The notes beneath the pieces are model-generated. The model was not told where the DNA came from. It saw only the letters and a list, made by a program, of their open reading frames with translations, and searched no databases. Positions 1 through 34,901 of a stretch of DNA of 47,388 nt are shown piece after piece. The stretch is from IMG/VR virus record IMGVR_UViG_2558860288_000006. The stretch is one strand, 5' to 3'. Position 1 is the first letter of the stretch. The number at the start of each line of letters is the position of its first letter. The position numbers were made by a program, and so were the translations under genes. Source of the stretch: a virus (taxonomy: Duplodnaviria > Heunggongvirae > Uroviricota > Caudoviricetes).

Positions 1-954
1 ATGACTAGCCGCCGCATTGCCTATGCTTATTTCGATCCTGTATGGGATAAAAGCATACACAGTACAGCACAGTTAGTTCGTACAAGTGTTGGACCATTAG
101 AATATCAAGAAGAAATGAAAGATCATCTCATTTGTCCCCAATGTTATGAGCCACTTAATCGTATACCATCAGAGTCAAGTATAACGATTATGACTGACGG
201 GCGAGAAGCTCTCTTCCGCCACTACCCAAATCCAAATGCTCCTTTTTGTTTGTTGAGAAGCGGAGCTATTATCGGGAAACGCTATTCTAGTGAAGAAGAA
301 GCCCAAAAAGCTGTTAGCGACAATGATGTCATTATCATATCCGGATTCATGCAGGAACGACCAGAACTTGTATATCGTGATAATACAGATTCTTCCGCCA
401 CTCGAACGGAAATGTACTTTGAAAGTAAAAATGGGGTATTTGTTGAAATTCCCATCTCTCGTCATCAAGGTGAAACATTCAATCTGCCCAGTAAGATAAC
501 AAGCGTGCAAGCTCTATGTACTAACTTTCAAGAAAACTACTATAAAGAGATATTTATCACCACTGGCACTAGTCTCGCTCGCAGTTATATTTTTTGCGAT
601 GCATTAAAAAGTATTTCTGATATCCGCTCTGAACAAGAAGAACCGGGGTTTTATTTTGGTGAAATAAGTTCAATAGAACAACATACTAATCATTCAACCG
701 TATGGTTAAAATTAAAAGGTTCTTGTTATTATCCTGATTTCAGAGTGCGAATAGAAAATAACACTGCAATTTCTCGTGGTATAACGGACGAAAATGCAAA
801 AAATAGAATTATTATTTTTTACACTCCAATATCATCTGTCGGCATGGGATACTGGACACATATTTTGAAATGGGGGGAAGTAGGTTTACTGGCTGAAAAA
901 CACAAAGATTTTTTACTTGACGATTATAACAAGAAACACACTAGTAACTGTTGA
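1..954 (+). CDS. Hypothetical protein (317 aa), orphan cargo gene at the tail-fibre end
   Basis: ATG-initiated 317-aa ORF, visibly AT-richer than neighbours, convergent with the minus-strand fibre assembly gene; no motif I can assign (single CPQC pair only). Confidence 0.5.
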   Translation: MTSRRIAYAYFDPVWDKSIHSTAQLVRTSVGPLEYQEEMKDHLICPQCYEPLNRIPSESSITIMTDGREALFRHYPNPNAPFCLLRSGAIIGKRYSSEEEAQKAVSDNDVIIISGFMQERPELVYRDNTDSSATRTEMYFESKNGVFVEIPISRHQGETFNLPSKITSVQALCTNFQENYYKEIFITTGTSLARSYIFCDALKSISDIRSEQEEPGFYFGEISSIEQHTNHSTVWLKLKGSCYYPDFRVRIENNTAISRGITDENAKNRIIIFYTPISSVGMGYWTHILKWGEVGLLAEKHKDFLLDDYNKKHTSNC

Positions 955-1042: not shown

Positions 1043-1606
1043 CTAGTTAATTGCCAGCTTTCTGATTGAGCTCAGATCCTTCAGTGTATTTAACGCTTCT
1101 TTCATCTCTCGCTGACGGCGATAAATTTCATCATTGCGATCAACCTGCGCCTGAACCATTGCAGTAAGTAGCTCATCCAGTTGTTGCATTGACAACTTTA
1201 CCTGCTGATTTTCCGCATCGCCCCACGTCATGACGTCCCGTGCTGTGTCGGATTTCGATGCCATCGCCACCGGATAAAGACGGGCCATAGAATCCGGCCC
1301 CCCGTTCCAGCTATGACCGTTCCATTCAAAAATGAATGGCTGCGCCTCCTGCTCTGTACGCCATGCTTCAATTTCCCGGCGTTTGGCTGCTTTTGCTGCT
1401 TCCAGCATCTCTGGCGTGACGGTGAACGGCGTTATTTCTCCCCATCTCCCGCTTTGCAGCTCCTGCCAGACTCGCTGCCCTGTCTCTGCTGTATCCGTGG
1501 CAGTTGCCGTATACGGAACCGGTTCATCCATGCCATCAAACAACACCCCGCAGTCAATCGCGCCATTTTCAAGATAACGCGCATTTTCGATGCGTTTTAT
1601 TTCCAT
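1043..1606 (-). CDS. Tail fibre assembly protein (Tfa-like chaperone)
   Basis: 187 aa from ATG at 1606 (MEIKRIENARYLENG...), immediately downstream of a fibre gene; the track ORF start at 1639 is an upstream extension. Confidence 0.6.
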   Translation of the reverse strand: MEIKRIENARYLENGAIDCGVLFDGMDEPVPYTATATDTAETGQRVWQELQSGRWGEITPFTVTPEMLEAAKAAKRREIEAWRTEQEAQPFIFEWNGHSWNGGPDSMARLYPVAMASKSDTARDVMTWGDAENQQVKLSMQQLDELLTAMVQAQVDRNDEIYRRQREMKEALNTLKDLSSIRKLAIN

Positions 1607-3609: not shown

Positions 3610-4995
3610 TTAAACACTCGCCACGTTATACCAGGTGCCGTTAATCAGTTTCTGAAGCGGTCGGTAATACACGCCGTTGACGTTATCCGCTGAATTTTTA
3701 CCAGTATCCGATATCGATATCCCTGACAATCCGTGTCCCGCAGGAGCGTGATATGTCCAGGAGATTACATTGCTGCCAGGGTTGTAATACATTTCGGAAC
3801 CATAGCGCACATCCTGCACTCCCTCTGTTCGCTGCTTATACCTTGCATCAAAGTTTCCGTAGTCTGACGGTGTTACCCTACCAGAAATGTTCATGGACCT
3901 GTTGCTTTGTAGCGTCCCGTTCTGAAAACGGAATATATGCTGGCCATTGGCATAAATATCCAGCAGGCCGTCGCCATTCTGCTTTATACCCGTATCGTTA
4001 TCCCCGAAAGCAATTGAGTTTCCGCCCAGCGCGTTCTGAACGCCGATACCCAGCGCACCATTGACCTGCGAACCACCGCCAACAGACACTTTATGCGACA
4101 TGGATATTTCGCCCGTCCGCAGATTAATAGTGAACGGGCGAAGTGGACCAATATCGCCGTTTTCGCCCTGATTTTCCCTGGTAGGAATGAGATGCAGGCA
4201 CTCTTCCGAACGACGAAAAATCAGACCAAAGGCTTCGTTGAAAATCCTCAGCGCATTAACACCACGGATTTTCAGCTCCCCGGTCATCAAATCACCAGAT
4301 TTTTTTACATATCGCAGATCAAAATCTGAATAGATATTGCCGGGGTTTATCACACTGAAATAGCTTTTCTCGCTATCAAGAAGGCAAATCAAAGGAATAC
4401 CCTTAATGATATCATTCGCTACCAGCTCGGACTTGTTCCCCTTATAAAGTGGGAACGAACCAAGAACCTTTCCGCCTAGTGTTAATTGAAGCGTCGCGGC
4501 GTTGGTATTGTTCTGAACGGGGAAAACGATAATCGGAGTTCGTAGCGTCCAATCTGTACCTCCATTAACAAAAAACGTCGAGGGAACTTCCAGCGTCAGT
4601 GCGTTTGCAGTGCCGCCAGCAACACCCGCAATATAATGACCGCTCTGAAGCTGCGCTATCTGTACGAAATAGTTTTCCGAACCACGCGTGGCAAAGTTAG
4701 CCACAACATCATTAAGGGACCAACCTTTCGCGGTTGTTCCTTCCTGCCCACGAATGACTTTCAACACATCACCGCTTACCGATACCAAATGACAAATCTC
4801 AAATGCAGACTCTTTATTATCGGTAAGCGTAATTTTTGCATAGACGCGTTGCCCGTTCGATTTATTTTCAAAATCGGCAGAAAGCAATTTTGCAAATTTA
4901 GCTCCCGTGCCCGGCATCACCGGAATATCAGTCTGAATCGTCGTAATATCACCAGCCAGTGCTGAAACAACGTTATTTCCGAATCCAAGAATCAT
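3610..4995 (-). CDS. Tail fibre protein (first fibre)
   Basis: 461 aa, follows baseplate J/I-like genes, Gly/Asn/Ser-rich beta-type composition; gene order as in P2 V-W-J-I-H-G. Confidence 0.6.
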   Translation of the reverse strand: MILGFGNNVVSALAGDITTIQTDIPVMPGTGAKFAKLLSADFENKSNGQRVYAKITLTDNKESAFEICHLVSVSGDVLKVIRGQEGTTAKGWSLNDVVANFATRGSENYFVQIAQLQSGHYIAGVAGGTANALTLEVPSTFFVNGGTDWTLRTPIIVFPVQNNTNAATLQLTLGGKVLGSFPLYKGNKSELVANDIIKGIPLICLLDSEKSYFSVINPGNIYSDFDLRYVKKSGDLMTGELKIRGVNALRIFNEAFGLIFRRSEECLHLIPTRENQGENGDIGPLRPFTINLRTGEISMSHKVSVGGGSQVNGALGIGVQNALGGNSIAFGDNDTGIKQNGDGLLDIYANGQHIFRFQNGTLQSNRSMNISGRVTPSDYGNFDARYKQRTEGVQDVRYGSEMYYNPGSNVISWTYHAPAGHGLSGISISDTGKNSADNVNGVYYRPLQKLINGTWYNVASV

Positions 4996-5618
4996 TTTTG
5001 AATCACCGTTGTTGCATAGGAATAAATAAAAGGGAGTTTTACATATTTCTGGTCAATGGCATCTTTCAGAAAATAGCCTATACCATCACCATATTCTGGT
5101 ATCTGAATAGAAAAAACACTGTCCGATACAGTCACGCTCACATCAAAAGTGTGCTGCAACGGCGGGTCTATTCCGTTTTTCCCATGAATGAACCGTGCCA
5201 CACGGCGCTTTAACCAGTCAATGCAGAAATGCGAACCGTCAGCCTTATAAAAATTCCAAGTTAATATTCGCTTGAAATAATCATCCGGAACATACGATGC
5301 CTGCCCCGGAACATAATTCCGCATTGCCGCATAAGGGATTGTATTGTATTCAATGGTATCGTATGCGCCGCGTGCAATAGCCTCCTCGGAAACCTGTAGT
5401 AAAGGCCTTTCAACGCCATAAATCCCGAGAGCAATCCAGTCCAGCAATTGCCCGGTTATTGATTCCGATGTCCAGCATGGCAATGCCAGATTGTTGAGTG
5501 AATCGAGGTATTCCTGAGCAATTTCATTGTATGCATCAAAGAACGCAACAACATTCGGATCATCTCTGTACTGCACAAACGGATAAGCAGGGAGAATTTT
5601 TTCAGTCAGATATTGCAT
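4992..5618 (-). CDS. Baseplate/tail protein (gpI-like position)
   Basis: ORF downstream of the J-like gene; ATG at 5618 (MQYLTEKILP...) chosen over longer in-frame extensions that would overlap the upstream gene by more than 100 nt. Confidence 0.45.
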   Translation of the reverse strand: MQYLTEKILPAYPFVQYRDDPNVVAFFDAYNEIAQEYLDSLNNLALPCWTSESITGQLLDWIALGIYGVERPLLQVSEEAIARGAYDTIEYNTIPYAAMRNYVPGQASYVPDDYFKRILTWNFYKADGSHFCIDWLKRRVARFIHGKNGIDPPLQHTFDVSVTVSDSVFSIQIPEYGDGIGYFLKDAIDQKYVKLPFIYSYATTVIQK

Positions 5619-6828
5619 ACTTGTTAACTTGAACCTGTGATACCACCGTCGAAAAATAGGAATAGGTATCGCCATAAACCAGGCTTGTGTCTTTTGCCGG
5701 AGGAACAATATGGCCATTAATGCCAATGCTCACACTGATTGTTGAGATCAACGTCGCATCAACCAACAATCTGACGGAACTGGTAAAAATATCCTGGATT
5801 CGCAGCAGATTTATCGGGTGTCCGACTTCAATAGAATTGATGTAATCAGCAACGTTTTGCTGCACAGCCATAGCAATACCCGCCGGATCAACATAATCAT
5901 CAGATACAGTGTTCCAGGTGATTAGCACCATGACGTTTTGTGATGACGGGATAACGAACGGCACCTGATAAACATCTGGCGAAACGGTTATTGAAACCGT
6001 GCGTTTTTCCACTGCCGCACCAGATGGATTGCTAACATCGTTGGTCAGTTTCGAAATATCCGGTACAGATTTGTAAATAGCATAAGCCACATCATACGGA
6101 TCACCGCCACCAACAACCGCAACCCATTTCCCCAGCGACGACTGCCGGAAAGAAATCAGGTTTTCTCGCACACCGCTTACTGATTTGAGCATCGCTTTAA
6201 AGCAATCCGGTGTTCCCTGCACACCAAACATGCCGGACTCCATGACTTCGGCGCGGTAAGATGCCCACGTTTGCGCCTCCTGACCTGGCATCCCTGCGGT
6301 AAGGTTCGTGCATTTTACAGGCTGATCTTTGGGTACCGATGTAATGACCTGCGTTACGGTTCCTTCCGGTACAGCCCATGAGCCTGACGTTGTGGCCACA
6401 CAGTAGACTGGCTCAGTCTGCCCGCTTTCCGGCACCACCGTATCGCGGGAAACTGCATACTGGTAGTTGCCGTCACCGACAACAAATCCTTTAGGGATAC
6501 CAAACCCCGGCAACGCCTCAAACACCACGTATACCGCCGTATTTGTACTTAATCCCTTCTGTGCTCCATAAATGTTTCCGAGTTGCATCAGTAACGGAAT
6601 ATTTGCGCCGTATGGGCTTACGGAGTTAATAAGGTCCACCCGCGCCTGGTCTATTAATGCCAGCGCCCCGACAGCCGTGCTGGCAAGGTCTGTAATAAGC
6701 CCCGCCGGAAGGTTGGCTGTATATCCAGGTACTTTTTCGGCAACTCTGGTGATAAGATTCGCGAGCAAATCATTGGGTGGCGTAGGCTGCGCCCCCGCAC
6801 TGGTCATAGTAATTGGTATTTCTGACAT
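5602..6828 (-). CDS. Baseplate J-like protein
   Basis: 408 aa; size and position between W-like and I-like genes in a contractile-tail baseplate cluster. Confidence 0.55.
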   Translation of the reverse strand: MSEIPITMTSAGAQPTPPNDLLANLITRVAEKVPGYTANLPAGLITDLASTAVGALALIDQARVDLINSVSPYGANIPLLMQLGNIYGAQKGLSTNTAVYVVFEALPGFGIPKGFVVGDGNYQYAVSRDTVVPESGQTEPVYCVATTSGSWAVPEGTVTQVITSVPKDQPVKCTNLTAGMPGQEAQTWASYRAEVMESGMFGVQGTPDCFKAMLKSVSGVRENLISFRQSSLGKWVAVVGGGDPYDVAYAIYKSVPDISKLTNDVSNPSGAAVEKRTVSITVSPDVYQVPFVIPSSQNVMVLITWNTVSDDYVDPAGIAMAVQQNVADYINSIEVGHPINLLRIQDIFTSSVRLLVDATLISTISVSIGINGHIVPPAKDTSLVYGDTYSYFSTVVSQVQVNKYAISD

Positions 6829-6840
6829 ATTTACTCCATT

Positions 6841-6866
6841 AAAAAACCCGCTTTCGCGGGTTTTTT
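6841..6866. terminator. Intrinsic terminator hairpin (palindromic, usable on either strand)
   Basis: aaaaaacccgc-tttc-gcgggtttttt: GC stem with 4-nt loop flanked by A6 and T6, 2 nt after the stop of the nuclease-domain gene. Confidence 0.55.
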
Positions 6867-6868
6867 AC

Positions 6869-8029
6869 TTATTCAACCTCTTCTAAACTGCTCACTCTGG
6901 ACCCTCGGCGGAAATTATCATCATTTTTAACATACTCGTATGAATCCAGAATCAAACCAGATATGCGAAGTATATCTTCCGGATTAGTTATATGTATCCT
7001 TTTACCATCCGTATCAAGTCGAGCTCGTCTTATTTCATTCAACTGAACTTCACTAAGCGAAATAGGTAATGTTATAAATGAAGATTTTTTATCATAAAAT
7101 CTTAACAGCCATCTATTAGTTTTACCATTCAATAGTACACCAAAATATGACTCAGTATCTTTATATTCTATATTATCTTCTGTTTGTATGATTTGTTTTA
7201 CCCTTTCAAATAGTTCCAATTCTTTGGCTGTGGTTATTATGTTGGGGTTTTCTTCATCAACAATGGCGTTATTAACTTGTGTATCCGTTGCATCATTTTC
7301 TTTAGTTTGCTCTACCGGTTGTGTAGATAGCCCGGAAACCACCATTGCGCTAACAGCGCGCTCAACGGCCTGTTTAACTAATGGAGTCACGAACTCAAGA
7401 AATCTCTGATTAAGTTGTCTCTCAATATTTGAACGACTAGCAACATATCGAACAAACTCCAGATCAACTTCACGAAGACTAGAACTGATTGTTTTAGTAA
7501 ATGAATTCAAATAAACACTTTCTTCAGCCAGTGTCCGCAAAGCCTCTGGTTTGAATTTATCATAACGAAAACGAAATAATTGTGTAATATCGGAGTGAGT
7601 TAGAGAATCCATTCTTATTTTTAAAAACGGCGTTGAATCCATTATGTTTTTTTGTTTCAAATCCGTAAAAAAACGCCATTCAACACCATTTGTAATGGCT
7701 GATATAGTAACTTCCGGTGTTGAATTAAAATATCTTGATAGCTGTGGGCAGTGATTATCAATTTGTTCTGAAAACGATTTCGCCTCAATGAACATCACAG
7801 GAACATCATGACAAAATAAAGCGTAATCAACCCGTTCATTAGCCTTAACCCCGGGGAAGTCAGCACTATACTCAGCTTTGACTTTTCTTGGATCATACGG
7901 AGTAAAACCAAGAATATCTAGAAATGGCATAATGAGTGCTTGTTTTGTCGTTTCTTCAGTTGTACAAAACACCCCCATTTTTGCAACATGCTCTGTGTGT
8001 ATTTTTAACTTATTTGCAAAATTTTCCAT
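6869..8029 (-). CDS. PD-(D/E)xK nuclease-domain protein (type I restriction HsdR N-terminal / Mrr-like fold) with uncharacterised C-terminal region
   Basis: Motif block ...TKQALIMPFLDILGF...ERVDYALFCHDVPVMFIEAKS (Asp73, Glu87-x-Lys89 in track numbering); AT-rich; inserted between baseplate W-like and J-like genes; ATG at 8029 has a GGAGG SD, alternative ATG at 8044. Confidence 0.6.
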   Translation of the reverse strand: MENFANKLKIHTEHVAKMGVFCTTEETTKQALIMPFLDILGFTPYDPRKVKAEYSADFPGVKANERVDYALFCHDVPVMFIEAKSFSEQIDNHCPQLSRYFNSTPEVTISAITNGVEWRFFTDLKQKNIMDSTPFLKIRMDSLTHSDITQLFRFRYDKFKPEALRTLAEESVYLNSFTKTISSSLREVDLEFVRYVASRSNIERQLNQRFLEFVTPLVKQAVERAVSAMVVSGLSTQPVEQTKENDATDTQVNNAIVDEENPNIITTAKELELFERVKQIIQTEDNIEYKDTESYFGVLLNGKTNRWLLRFYDKKSSFITLPISLSEVQLNEIRRARLDTDGKRIHITNPEDILRISGLILDSYEYVKNDDNFRRGSRVSSLEEVE

Positions 8030-8179
8030 GCTTGTCTCCTCCATGGTAACAATATGTATTTTGCAAATCCGAAATAATATATGTCAATATGCTCCAGCTT
8101 AGAAAATTACTCGCCCCCCCTAAAATATCTCTCTACAGCACTCCAAACCAAGGTAAAAGTTTTATCATAAAACTGTGAT

Positions 8180-32895: not shown

Positions 32896-32952
32896 ATGAA
32901 ATCAATCAGAAAGGCGATCCATAAGAACAATAGACAGATAAAGGATAGTCAG

Positions 32953-34314
32953 ATGCAAACAGCAGAGATGTTTCGAAATTTTTTGAACAATTTGAAAATT
33001 TCAGACGAACGTATGCAGGCAATTGCAACACATTATAAAAATGCCACAAGAAGACTTAACATCGAGTTTCGGGGGGTAGCGAATGGATTCAACAATCGAT
33101 TGAAAGTCGGTTCAGCAGGTCGCCGAACAGCGGTTAGCAAAACATCAGACTTGGATATGCTGTATATTATGCCCGCGAGATTGTGGGGAGATTACCAATC
33201 CGGTGTTAATCCACAGCGCCGTTTGCTTCGCGATGTAAAAGAAGCATTAAAACTATCTTTTACCCAGCAAGAGATCAAGGTTGATAGATTAGTTGTACAA
33301 ATCATTTTTGACTCTTTTCATATAGAGGTGCAACCAGTTTTTGAGACTGATGAAGGGCATTTTAAATATCCTGATACTAAGGCCAACGATGGTAATGGAG
33401 GGTGGCGAGTAACTAAACCTCGGATGGAAATTACCGAAATGAGAAATTTCCGTAATAACAAAAGTAGTAATCTTCATAATCTTTGCCGCATGTTAAGAGC
33501 CTGGAAAAATAGAAACACCGTTGATATGGGGGGGCTTCTCATTGACACATTGGCTTGGAGATTTCTGAAACAAACAGATGATTATGATAATACCGGAATG
33601 GTCAGTTATGGGCTTATGTGTCGAGACTTCTTTGACTTTTTGCATCAAGAAGATGTCCATGAACATTATGCAGCGATAGGAAGTGTGCAGAGAGTTAAGG
33701 TCTATAGAAATTTTCAGCGGCAAGCAAAACGAGCCTTTAAATTATGCACAAAAGCGATTGAAGCTTATGAGAATGGCTCGACAAAGAAATGCCACGAACA
33801 CTGGCGAGAAGTTTTTGGGCTAACTTTCCCTAAAGCAGTTGTAGAAATGCGTGACTCTCAGGGGTTAGAGTCAGCTAATTTCATCAATGAGTCCTATACG
33901 GCTCAGACGTGGCGCAATACGGAAGAGTTTACAGATGAAAAGTTTGATGATGTTGATATAAGATACCCCCTCGAAGTTAACTGCATTGTCAAAGAAAACG
34001 GGTATAGGGACCGTGCAATTAGGGCTTACCTGTCGGATATGGCTCGTTATTGGTTACCACCGAATAGAACTTTATCATTTTCGATCAACCAAGCAAGTTT
34101 GGATATCATTCCTGAGCCTTATGATATTTACTGGAAAGTACTGAATAGAGGTTTAGAAGCTGAGCAGCGTGATGAAGTTCGAGGTCAAATAGTTTTAGGT
34201 CAAGTAACTCACACTGAACATACAAAATTTAGAGGTGATCACAAGGTTTGGTGTTACATAGTTAAGAACCATATAGTAATTGCCCAAAACGTTATCGACA
34301 TACCAATCGAGTAA
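32953..34314 (+). CDS. Nucleotidyltransferase, Pol-beta superfamily (CD-NTase/SMODS-like signalling enzyme candidate)
   Basis: Active-site pattern ...KVGSAGRRTAVSKTSDLDMLYIMP... (GS, DxD) and a later acidic strand ...VVQIIFDSFHIE...; ATG at 32953 has an AAGGA SD (alternative ATG at 32896 gives 472 aa); AT-rich, plus strand. Confidence 0.65.
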   Translation: MQTAEMFRNFLNNLKISDERMQAIATHYKNATRRLNIEFRGVANGFNNRLKVGSAGRRTAVSKTSDLDMLYIMPARLWGDYQSGVNPQRRLLRDVKEALKLSFTQQEIKVDRLVVQIIFDSFHIEVQPVFETDEGHFKYPDTKANDGNGGWRVTKPRMEITEMRNFRNNKSSNLHNLCRMLRAWKNRNTVDMGGLLIDTLAWRFLKQTDDYDNTGMVSYGLMCRDFFDFLHQEDVHEHYAAIGSVQRVKVYRNFQRQAKRAFKLCTKAIEAYENGSTKKCHEHWREVFGLTFPKAVVEMRDSQGLESANFINESYTAQTWRNTEEFTDEKFDDVDIRYPLEVNCIVKENGYRDRAIRAYLSDMARYWLPPNRTLSFSINQASLDIIPEPYDIYWKVLNRGLEAEQRDEVRGQIVLGQVTHTEHTKFRGDHKVWCYIVKNHIVIAQNVIDIPIE

Positions 34315-34319
34315 TTATC

Positions 34320-34901
34320 ATGCAAAAAAATGACTTATTATCTCAGATTGCCTCTGCCGGATATAATGTTGGATTTGGCGCTAAGAAAAATTTTGCTACA
34401 TTTGATATTGTTAGCAAACTCCCTGGCTGGATTGGTATTATATCACTAGCAGTCTCTATTTTAGGCCTTTATATGGATGAAATGAGTTCTAAGAATATTG
34501 CAGCCATTTTTATCATTTTAAGCATTGGCAGTTTGTACATCAATTTCTATGATGGTGATAAAAATAAATATGAAGAGGCTGGAAAGAAGCAAACAGCAAT
34601 CTTTAGAAAGATTGAAAGATTGTATTACGATGCAAAATCAGAAAGCGAACCGGATTCTGTTAAATATATTGGGCAACTTGACATTCTGTTAAAAGAATTT
34701 GATGAAACCACTATCACCAAACAAATTTGTGGAAGCAATTGGTATGCTCATTATAAATTCTTTAGTGAAATGGAAAAAAGGTGGCTTGAAGATCAGTTGT
34801 CATTGACTTTCTGGAAGGATAAAGTCCCTAACACTTTGAAATTTCTCATTCTGATAGTTTTCTGCGTCGTTTTGCTTTCGATAATTTATAGGTGTGGTTG
34901 A
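34320..34901 (+). CDS. Small membrane protein with three predicted TM helices (candidate effector)
   Basis: 193 aa; hydrophobic helices WIGIISLAVSILGLYM, IAAIFIILSIGSLYINF and C-terminal FLILIVFCVVLLSIIY; start 5 nt after the NTase stop (operon). Confidence 0.6.
   Translation: MQKNDLLSQIASAGYNVGFGAKKNFATFDIVSKLPGWIGIISLAVSILGLYMDEMSSKNIAAIFIILSIGSLYINFYDGDKNKYEEAGKKQTAIFRKIERLYYDAKSESEPDSVKYIGQLDILLKEFDETTITKQICGSNWYAHYKFFSEMEKRWLEDQLSLTFWKDKVPNTLKFLILIVFCVVLLSIIYRCG

Follow-up and report, generated by a model that had tools for sequence, protein, structure and literature searches.

Prophages and their satellites contain defence hotspots in which single genes or small sets of genes are exchanged as cargo. 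Examples are the old, tin and fun(Z) genes of P2, the P2 and P4 hotspots, and the gin-mom end of Mu. Swappable AT-rich defence cargo at prophage ends and in defence islands is already well known, and candidate defence genes of unknown mechanism are currently reported in large numbers. Among such cargo, the prophage protein P2 Tin is reported to exclude T-even phages on its own, by poisoning their ssDNA-binding protein gp32.

Here, we analyzed an ORF at the start of a 47,388-nucleotide viral sequence (IMG/VR record IMGVR_UViG_2558860288_000006), referred to below as the window. The locus resembles the described hotspots in several respects. The ORF lies at the fixed, post-fibre end of its prophage, is AT-rich, and is transcribed against the structural operon. 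Sister prophages have it in a minority of cases and in one case hold Rosmer, a validated system, in the slot instead; a homologue occupies the equivalent relative place in a Mu-like prophage. Unlike the catalogued hotspot cargo, however, the ORF encodes a protein unrelated to it in sequence and without a PADLOC match. The ORF thus occupies a swappable prophage slot, and its homologues are found in defence islands.

The ORF is a conserved gene under purifying selection

The ORF starts with ATG, encodes 317 amino acids on the plus strand, and converges on a fibre-assembly gene 88 bp away, as a sequence-only reading of the window had described. The features at this end of the window are as follows.

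1–954, plus strand: CDS of the ORF, stop codon included (317 aa, WP_023568472.1), the outermost gene within the Rac-type prophage
976–1026, no strand assigned: hairpin, candidate shared (bidirectional) terminator (dG -19.9 kcal/mol, z -2.33)
1043–1606, minus strand: convergent neighbour gene of the DUF4376 tail-fibre assembly type, the inner edge of the cargo slot

The gap between the two genes holds the hairpin, which was missed by a simple terminator scan. The ORF protein is an exact match to WP_023568472.1, labelled "hypothetical protein". An identical 954-nt CDS is annotated in three RefSeq E. coli genomes, GmM062, F2_407_2_2, and C5, which share the window DNA at 99.5–99.9% identity. A GGAG Shine-Dalgarno sequence lies 8–11 nt upstream of the ATG and is also present in most homologues at the equivalent place. 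Because the homologues are 307–317 aa long, with aligned N-termini, the start codon is correct and the ORF is not truncated. The window does begin exactly at the ATG, as had been pointed out, and an IMG/VR contig has the same first base; the position was set by a prophage caller, whose cut fell on the edge of a gene.

The earlier impression that the ORF is richer in AT than its surroundings is confirmed by its GC content of 37.6% (GC3 28.3%), compared with 47.8% for the remainder of the window. Equally low values occur in only 3.4% of segments of the same size (954 nt). Across six pairs of family members, dN/dS ranges from 0.04 to 0.20, indicating strong purifying selection and therefore a functional protein-coding gene that moves horizontally. 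Conservation solely as a pseudogene, which had been named beforehand as an outcome that would speak against a cargo role, is not what we observe: the ORF is intact, and it is a genuine, conserved gene under purifying selection.

The prophage boundary lies directly upstream of the ORF

In GmM062, F2_407_2_2, and C5, the gene order is nifJ-ompN-uspF, followed by approximately 560 bp of intergenic DNA and then the ORF. This intergenic DNA contains the uspF terminator and, approximately 333 bp upstream of the ORF ATG in all three E. coli genomes, a Rac-type att site consisting of a 43-bp fragment of the ttcA 5' end. The fragment shares 81% identity with that end of ttcA and closes with the exact 15-mer ATACAACCTGAACAA. 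The opposite end of the element reads recE-recT-ralR-xisR-intR and directly abuts an intact ttcA. The ttcA fragment at one end and intR abutting ttcA at the other therefore identify a Rac-type prophage integrated in ttcA. Its boundary lies approximately 333 bp upstream of the ORF ATG, with the ORF as the outermost gene of the prophage.

The sequence-only reading had recommended searching this upstream DNA for an att site and for partner genes, and had considered that the ORF might belong to a system continuing to the left. The att site was found; partner genes were not, as the 333 bp between it and the ORF contain none in any of the three E. coli genomes. Since only the att site and the host gene uspF lie to the left of the ORF, and no neighbour is conserved over the 20 loci described below, the idea of a leftward-continuing system does not hold. 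A search of the same 333 bp showed no promoter of consensus strength.

A sister prophage carries Rosmer in the same slot

E. coli C7 contains a prophage of the same type at the same uspF/ttcA site, with the same fibre and baseplate genes and a shared "type I restriction endonuclease" moron. In C7, two different genes, RmrA and RmrT, stand in place of the ORF, with the att side on one flank and the DUF4376 gene on the other. These are 89% and 85% identical to RmrA and RmrT of Enterobacter, a pair that PADLOC identifies as Rosmer (RmrA 3e-144, RmrT 1e-57). The presence of Rosmer in this slot bears out the earlier suggestion that the region past the fibre genes is a cargo site. In other prophages with related fibre modules, the slot is either empty or holds Rha/ash or ORF6N genes. 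The window prophage additionally carries a type I CBASS in a second AT-rich island at 32.9–34.9 kb, with matches for the cyclase (7e-157) and the 2TM effector (8e-78).

Homologues recur next to defence systems and lack an obligatory partner

We tallied genomic context by hand at 20 independent loci, so that the counts describe these loci and are not a genome-wide enrichment statistic. Known defence systems lie within three genes of the ORF homologue at at least 11 of the 20, and four of the 20 are prophage cargo slots. The individual contexts are listed here, beginning with the prophages.

E. coli Rac-type prophage: ORF at the fibre/att end
Edwardsiella Mu-like prophage: homologue post-fibre, convergent on a fibre-assembly gene, adjoining com/mom
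Vibrio P2-like prophage: homologue at the integrase end, adjoining a type IV REase-like HNH protein
Pseudomonas cichorii prophage early region: opposite-strand moron near a C5 methylase, Lar, and putAbiC
Serratia marcescens: homologue between an SRA-McrA gene and GmrSD plus type I R-M
Serratia plymuthica: homologue between Mokosh MkoC and EcoRII-Vsr-Dcm
Providencia: homologue between PD-Lambda-2 and MvaI/BcnI R-M
Pantoea: homologue upstream of a Gabija-like pair
Pectobacterium: two-gene islet of the homologue and AbiTii
Pseudomonas phoenicis: homologue adjoining a HEPN RiboL-PSP gene
Enterobacter: integrase, homologue, then Rosmer
Lelliottia: integrase, homologue, then an AbiJ-like PDC-S32 gene
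Salmonella arizonae: disrupted homologue adjoining homologues of the PD-Lambda-2-type genes B and C
Phytobacter: disrupted homologue adjoining the PD-Lambda-2-type gene C only

No obvious defence neighbour was seen at six of the 20 loci, namely those of Morganella, Photorhabdus (two loci), Psychromonas, Pseudoalteromonas, and Atlantibacter. Defence islands also contain regulators, toxin-antitoxin genes, and counter-defence genes, and guilt by association is therefore a probabilistic argument.

Clustering of the neighbouring proteins at the 20 loci revealed nothing, besides the ORF itself, that is common to all of them. The non-coding DNA upstream of the homologues is not conserved and has no Rfam match. 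A small gene of 94–100 aa lies directly upstream on the same strand in Edwardsiella and Pantoea, where the copies are 44–46% identical. It is missing from most loci, and in Pectobacterium it is a decayed pseudogene beside an intact ORF homologue. With no shared neighbour, unconserved upstream DNA, and a small gene that is optional or decayed, the ORF thus behaves as an autonomous module without an obligatory partner.

The family is rare, widely scattered, and unnamed

The ORF protein matches 24 clusters at 90% identity in a large protein database, all annotated as hypothetical and none with a Pfam domain. Their lengths are 307–317 aa except for one of 258 aa, and the genera represented are Escherichia, Edwardsiella, Photorhabdus, Serratia, Providencia, Atlantibacter, Morganella, Xenorhabdus, Pectobacterium, Pantoea, and Pseudomonas. 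When 1.84 billion representative proteins were searched exhaustively with a profile, only 127 clusters at 50% identity emerged, mostly of about 300 aa and mostly from Gammaproteobacteria, and a second search of the large database with a broad profile added at least two more sequences. Additional members are found in Vibrio, Psychromonas, Pseudoalteromonas, Lelliottia, Enterobacter, Salmonella arizonae, and Phytobacter, the homologues in the last two being disrupted. The gene is thereby spread over Enterobacterales, Pseudomonas, Vibrio, Psychromonas, and Pseudoalteromonas. The description of the ORF as an orphan consequently fails with respect to relatives, which exist in both sets of clusters, and stands only in the sense that the gene is rare in E. 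coli, where we found it in 3 of 5,426 complete genomes. The E. coli carriers are mostly bovine and human isolates.

None of 72,556 plasmids carries a copy, and a collection of 50,697 phage records contains one match, itself a prophage element. Low GC content, rarity in E. coli, and the scattered distribution all suggest that the ORF was acquired horizontally.

Some family members are longer (384–650 aa), extended by disordered tails of acidic or polar character in which we found no Pfam match, no TM segment, and no extra effector domain. Because the longer members merely gain such tails, the architecture of zinc module, middle domain, and OB fold is constant throughout the family.

The protein combines a putative zinc module, a middle domain, and an OB fold

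The ORF protein is soluble and cytoplasmic, and it can be divided as follows.

1–276, plus strand: N-terminal domain (residues 1–92) with invariant putative zinc ligands, modelled with a pLDDT of about 90
133–135, plus strand: C45, invariant putative zinc ligand
142–144, plus strand: C48, invariant putative zinc ligand
166–168, plus strand: P56, invariant
220–222, plus strand: H74, invariant putative zinc ligand
247–249, plus strand: C83, invariant putative zinc ligand
277–597, plus strand: middle alpha/beta domain (residues 93–199), with no recognizable fold, which includes a variable acidic linker (residues 123–147) and the conserved motifs E141, G145, P151-x-x-R154-H155-x-G157, P163-S164, C173, N175-F176, and N179
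598–894, plus strand: C-terminal OB-fold domain (residues 200–298), topology beta1-beta2-beta3-alpha-beta4-beta5, with conserved residues G220, D246-F247, and W291-G292-E293
895–951, plus strand: C-terminal helix (residues 299–317), after a conserved L-L-P-x-K-Y motif

Across 66 diverse members, with identities down to 18–20%, the only invariant residues are C45, C48, P56, H74, and C83. To judge by this conservation, C45, C48, H74, and C83 presumably form a Cys2-His-Cys metal site, putatively for zinc. The single CPQC pair that had been noticed in the sequence is indeed present, and it is part of this family-invariant set of four rather than an isolated pair.

The C-terminal domain is an OB fold: it forms a five-stranded closed beta-barrel, has a helix between strands 3 and 4, and resembles known OB folds. 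Several described proteins also combine an OB fold with zinc, including RPA70 DBD-C, the MCM N-terminal domain, MCM10, and T4 gp32, but identity to these is only 6–16%. The ORF protein differs in that its zinc module forms a domain of its own at the N-terminus, outside the OB barrel; its OB domain is not basic, and an unrelated middle domain of 100 aa intervenes. No match to an SSB or RPA Pfam model was obtained.

The protein is acidic, with a pI of 5.8 and a family mean net charge of -8.6, and the OB domain itself has a net charge of about -1. OB folds bind proteins as well as nucleic acids. Given the acidic protein, the non-basic OB domain, and this breadth of ligands, nucleic-acid binding is not assured.

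The motifs E141, R154-H155-x-G157, and W291-G-E293 might mark an active or binding site, as conservation singles them out as candidates. They are kept in 73–94% of the broad family, although none is invariant (R154 82%, H155 78%, E141 76%). The only polar residues strictly invariant in the broad family are the four putative zinc ligands. The absence of any further strictly invariant polar residue weakens an enzymatic version of the model.

Profile and fold searches place only the C-terminal domain

The absence of HNH, Walker, and recombinase signatures, reported earlier from inspection, agrees with our searches of Pfam, PHROG, PADLOC, and NCBIfam profiles, in which the ORF protein found no match. 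In Pfam it gave nothing but a spurious NEAT match (E 0.11), and in PADLOC-DB 2.0.0 there were zero matches at E ≤1. No TM segment, nuclease, NTPase, TIR, or pore could be recognized in it, nor an HTH or a known DNA-binding regulator domain. When the 66 diverse members were compared with Pfam, PADLOC, and PHROGs, we obtained stray weak PADLOC matches (PDC-M02B at 1.6e-4, in a single member, and DruB at 0.012) and otherwise only sub-threshold zinc-finger matches and one OB match. A profile search against all PDB sequences returned only noise, and a BFVD fold search with residues 1–200 gave no structural match. Two thirds of the protein length is without a detectable structural relative in PDB or BFVD.

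The remote homology search that the sequence-only reading had called for therefore provides no assignable family for the whole protein, and an OB fold only at the C-terminus. Kinship with fibre-associated, chaperone, or structural proteins, which that reading had considered as a contrary result, was not found in the PHROG or BFVD comparisons; nor is the ORF protein a member of the phage structural and fibre-assembly families in PHROGs v4 and Pfam (Caudo_TAP/DUF4376).

The spacing of the putative zinc ligands, C-P-x-C ... (A/S)-x-F-x-H ... C, is similar to that of the CoiA N-terminal zinc finger, DUF7830, and DUF7828. Among the 66 members, seven match DUF7830, four DUF7828, and one CoiA_N, and all of these matches fall on the zinc module. 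The best DUF7830 scores are 15.3–15.4 bits against a gathering cut-off of 27.5, with a best E of 0.0011 among the 66 members. CoiA_N scores only 10.5–11.6 bits, below its cut-off of 26.3, with matches confined to two members and none to the ORF protein itself. Residue-level follow-up with scores this far below the curated thresholds led us to reject membership in any of the three families and to treat the similarity as a resemblance only. The CoiA family proper was also rejected, as its central PD-(D/E)xK nuclease and CoiA_C were not found.

Further candidates were discarded as well. Neither profile nor fold comparison revealed the beta-beta-alpha metal motif with catalytic His of HNH/His-Me finger nucleases. 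Readings of E141 and R154-H155 as PD-(D/E)xK, HNH, or HEPN residues were dropped, since neither folds nor profiles support them and the residues fall short of invariance. The ORF is not a relative of Rosmer, as it has no PADLOC RmrT or RmrA match; Rosmer is its neighbour or its allelic replacement.

The protein family is unnamed, previously undescribed, and absent from every profile library searched. Our literature search found no paper naming the accessions, DUF7830/DUF7828, or PDC-M02; the gene may have been tested earlier by Brenes & Laub 2025, who address prophage defence in E. coli. The ORF protein is absent among the entries listed in the accessible part of the DefensePredictor supplements.

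Alternative explanations

Among the alternatives to an immunity function, the ORF product could be a factor that binds nucleic acids and serves mobile elements in housekeeping or regulation, for instance in a repressor-like role or in excision, replication, or maintenance; it would then accompany integrases and prophage ends. The gene lies directly after the island integrase in five Enterobacterales and two genes past the integrase in the Vibrio prophage, it is att-proximal in E. coli, and the pairing of an OB fold with a zinc module is common in nucleic-acid binding; the Rha, ash, and ORF6N regulators also occupy the slot. The E. coli ORF, however, is at the end opposite the integrase, no tyrosine integrase lies near the homologue in the displayed part of the Edwardsiella Mu-like prophage, and other homologues lie in chromosomal islets without a recombinase or in the middle of R-M/GmrSD islands. 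Sister prophages lack the ORF, which is therefore not needed for the life cycle of the element, and the protein has none of the HTH or known DNA-binding regulator domains. We regard such a factor as unlikely. A counter-defence or anti-restriction protein is less probable again. With its acidic character and OB fold, the ORF protein might shield DNA on entry or titrate one of the host's defence factors, and the acidic linker, the com/mom anti-restriction DNA modification module adjoining the Edwardsiella homologue, and the frequent position of homologues beside R-M systems would all fit. Yet many copies reside in stable chromosomal defence islands or islets and not in leading regions or early phage operons, plasmids carry none and the phage records only the one prophage element, and the slot is shared with a defence system, Rosmer.

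That the ORF is one component of a multi-gene system, with a partner upstream beyond the window, was a natural thought because a window starting at the ATG hid the upstream region. The small gene preceding the homologue in Edwardsiella and Pantoea points the same way, as does the Providencia homologue, which begins 40 bp past PD-Lambda-2 gene C. In E. coli, however, the upstream 333 bp contain no homologue of the small gene and are followed by the att site and uspF. The small gene is dispensed with at most loci and degenerate in Pectobacterium, and the 20 loci share neither a conserved neighbour nor a conserved non-coding element. This reading is contradicted, and effectively excluded at the E. 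coli locus; overall we consider it very improbable. Least credible is a tail-fibre-associated structural protein or chaperone, or a decaying, non-functional ORF. Fibre and fibre-assembly genes do adjoin the ORF, and the Salmonella arizonae and Phytobacter homologues are disrupted, but the protein has no PHROG, Pfam, or viral-structure match, the gene lies on the strand opposite to the structural operon and differs from it in composition, most homologues are located outside phages, and both the low dN/dS and the full-length conservation speak for a working protein. At the E. coli locus, a structural or decaying ORF is likewise effectively excluded.

A proposed stand-alone immunity protein

On balance, we lean towards the ORF encoding a stand-alone anti-phage or anti-mobile-element immunity protein, carried as autonomous mobile cargo and representing a new family. 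We favor this defence reading because of the allelism with Rosmer, the recurrent adjacency to defence systems, and the autonomy, horizontal mobility, and purifying selection of the gene. The type I CBASS elsewhere in the prophage is also in line with it. The sequence-only reading had offered a lysogenic-conversion or defence gene; defence is the better-supported half of that proposal, from genomic context, while conversion of the virulence type finds no support.

We infer this defence function, together with the ligand and the mode of action outlined here. As an immunity factor, the ORF protein would be expressed by the prophage, and its OB fold, aided by the zinc module, would recognize a ligand from the infecting phage. 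This ligand might be single-stranded nucleic acid, a replication or recombination intermediate, or a phage protein. The ORF protein would then block infection alone, by sequestering or poisoning the bound target. As an alternative effector step, the middle domain could act catalytically near E141 and R154-H155, in a way beyond recognition by homology. The net acidic charge, the variability of every candidate catalytic residue, and the lack of a recognizable effector weigh against any confident mechanism. P2 Tin illustrates how a lone, non-enzymatic cargo protein might stop phage replication by way of the ssDNA/SSB machinery, as an analogy of mechanism and not a sign of relatedness, and a Tin-like mode would fit an OB-fold protein without a recognizable effector.

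A more specific and bolder version is that the family constitutes a new class of single-protein immunity, without an enzymatic effector and with its first 200 residues in a fold not represented in PDB. Such a protein would capture a phage intermediate or an SSB-type protein through the OB fold and zinc module, and would be swappable with Rosmer. We put this forward as a long shot.

If the ORF protein protects against phages, its family would add to the catalogue of bacterial immunity a member with no known effector domain, in a compact, one-gene format that lends itself to studies of mechanism. The gene recurs in Serratia, Providencia, Morganella, Pantoea, Pectobacterium, and Edwardsiella, and it may therefore affect the phage susceptibility of clinical and agricultural strains. 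Should its role lie elsewhere than in defence, it would still be a conserved protein under strong selection on mobile elements. The slot itself, which in Rac-type E. coli prophages integrated in ttcA lies at the tail-fibre/att end, is swappable, holds the ORF, Rosmer, or neither, and can be mined for further systems.

Defence genes beside homologues of the ORF

The loci below concern homologues of the ORF (window 1-954, plus strand, a candidate defence cargo gene) and their neighbours. PD-Lambda-2, which comprises a HigB-like gene, an M78 peptidase gene (B) and a Beta_protein gene (C), adjoins the homologue, whole or in part, in three genera and in varying orientations.

L010 (Providencia) 5327-7961: PD-Lambda-2, all three genes
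L028 (Salmonella enterica subsp. arizonae) 7001-7954: split ORF homologue, two ORFs in the same frame
L030 (Phytobacter massiliensis) 7001-7955: split ORF homologue, two ORFs in different frames

In Providencia, gene C is followed after only 40 bp by the start of the co-oriented ORF homologue, so that the two may be co-transcribed. The split homologue of Salmonella arizonae lies by a PD-Lambda-2-type set with at least gene B and C homologues, while that of Phytobacter is accompanied by a gene C homologue alone out of the set. The Salmonella arizonae halves share one frame, indicating a premature stop, and the Phytobacter halves lie in differing frames, indicating a frameshift. The islands holding both split homologues have an integrase family in common.

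At three loci the ORF homologue is immediately preceded by a small co-oriented gene, which was not found at the other ORF-homologue loci.

L017 (Edwardsiella) 7656-7940: small upstream gene
L016 (Pantoea) 7674-7976: small upstream gene
L020 (Pectobacterium) about 7766-7960: small upstream gene, pseudogene

The gene encodes 94-100 aa. The two intact copies, from Edwardsiella and Pantoea, are 44-46% identical and share the motif GRHKCxxCAYExG...SQAGxVRHK...AYxxGYxDG; the Pectobacterium copy has decayed through stops and frameshifts. This gene may serve as an optional accessory or a regulator.

Other cargo of the prophage and its relatives

The second AT-rich island of the window (GC about 0.35-0.40) houses a type I CBASS, and in the third (GC about 0.35) baseplate genes flank a gene for a 391-aa protein. 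In the sister prophage of E. coli C7, at the same uspF/ttcA site, the cargo is Rosmer.

Window 32896-34901, plus strand: type I CBASS, PADLOC matches to cyclase and 2TM effector
Window 6869-8044, minus strand: 391-aa gene, RefSeq 'type I restriction endonuclease'
L038 (E. coli C7) 3957-5746: Rosmer (RmrT/RmrA), fibre/att end of Rac-type prophage

PADLOC identified the 472-aa CBASS protein as the oligonucleotide cyclase (7e-157) and the 193-aa protein as the 2TM effector (8e-78), labelled in RefSeq 'nucleotide-binding domain-containing protein' and 'SLATT domain-containing protein', respectively. Hok/Gef and DUF977 genes adjoin the pair, and the full segment is present in 2 of 5,426 E. coli genomes.

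The 391-aa gene had no PADLOC match. In E. coli F2_407_2_2 and C5, which also carry the ORF, the identical position is occupied by an LprI-family gene together with an AntA/AntB antirepressor, and the structural operon thus contains a second slot with exchangeable cargo.

Strain C3 (hit H47) likewise has a Rac-type prophage with Rosmer as its cargo at the fibre/att end. Prophage Rosmer closely resembles the chromosomal-island copy of Enterobacter sichuanensis (in C7, RmrA 89% and RmrT 85% identical), and one system therefore moves between the prophage slot and an integrase island.

Ends of the prophage

The AT-rich stretch of 333 bp that leads from the att site to the ATG of the ORF contains GCCCCATTTTTGC twice, about 30 bp apart.

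L001 (E. coli locus with the window's left flank) about 11773-11825: GCCCCATTTTTGC repeat pair, left of window position 1 and thus beyond the window
L015 (prophage right end, GmM062) 1719-1913 and neighbours: right-arm genes, corresponding to window about 45.4-46.1 kb

The pair could represent integrase arm-type sites or operator-like repeats. A promoter scan of this stretch returned no candidate reaching the 9-of-12 threshold.

As in K-12 Rac, the genes of the right arm include recE, recT, one for the type I toxin RalR, a DUF1187 gene, xisR and intR. From the ORF to the integrase gene, the GmM062 copy exceeds the window in length by about 1 kb.
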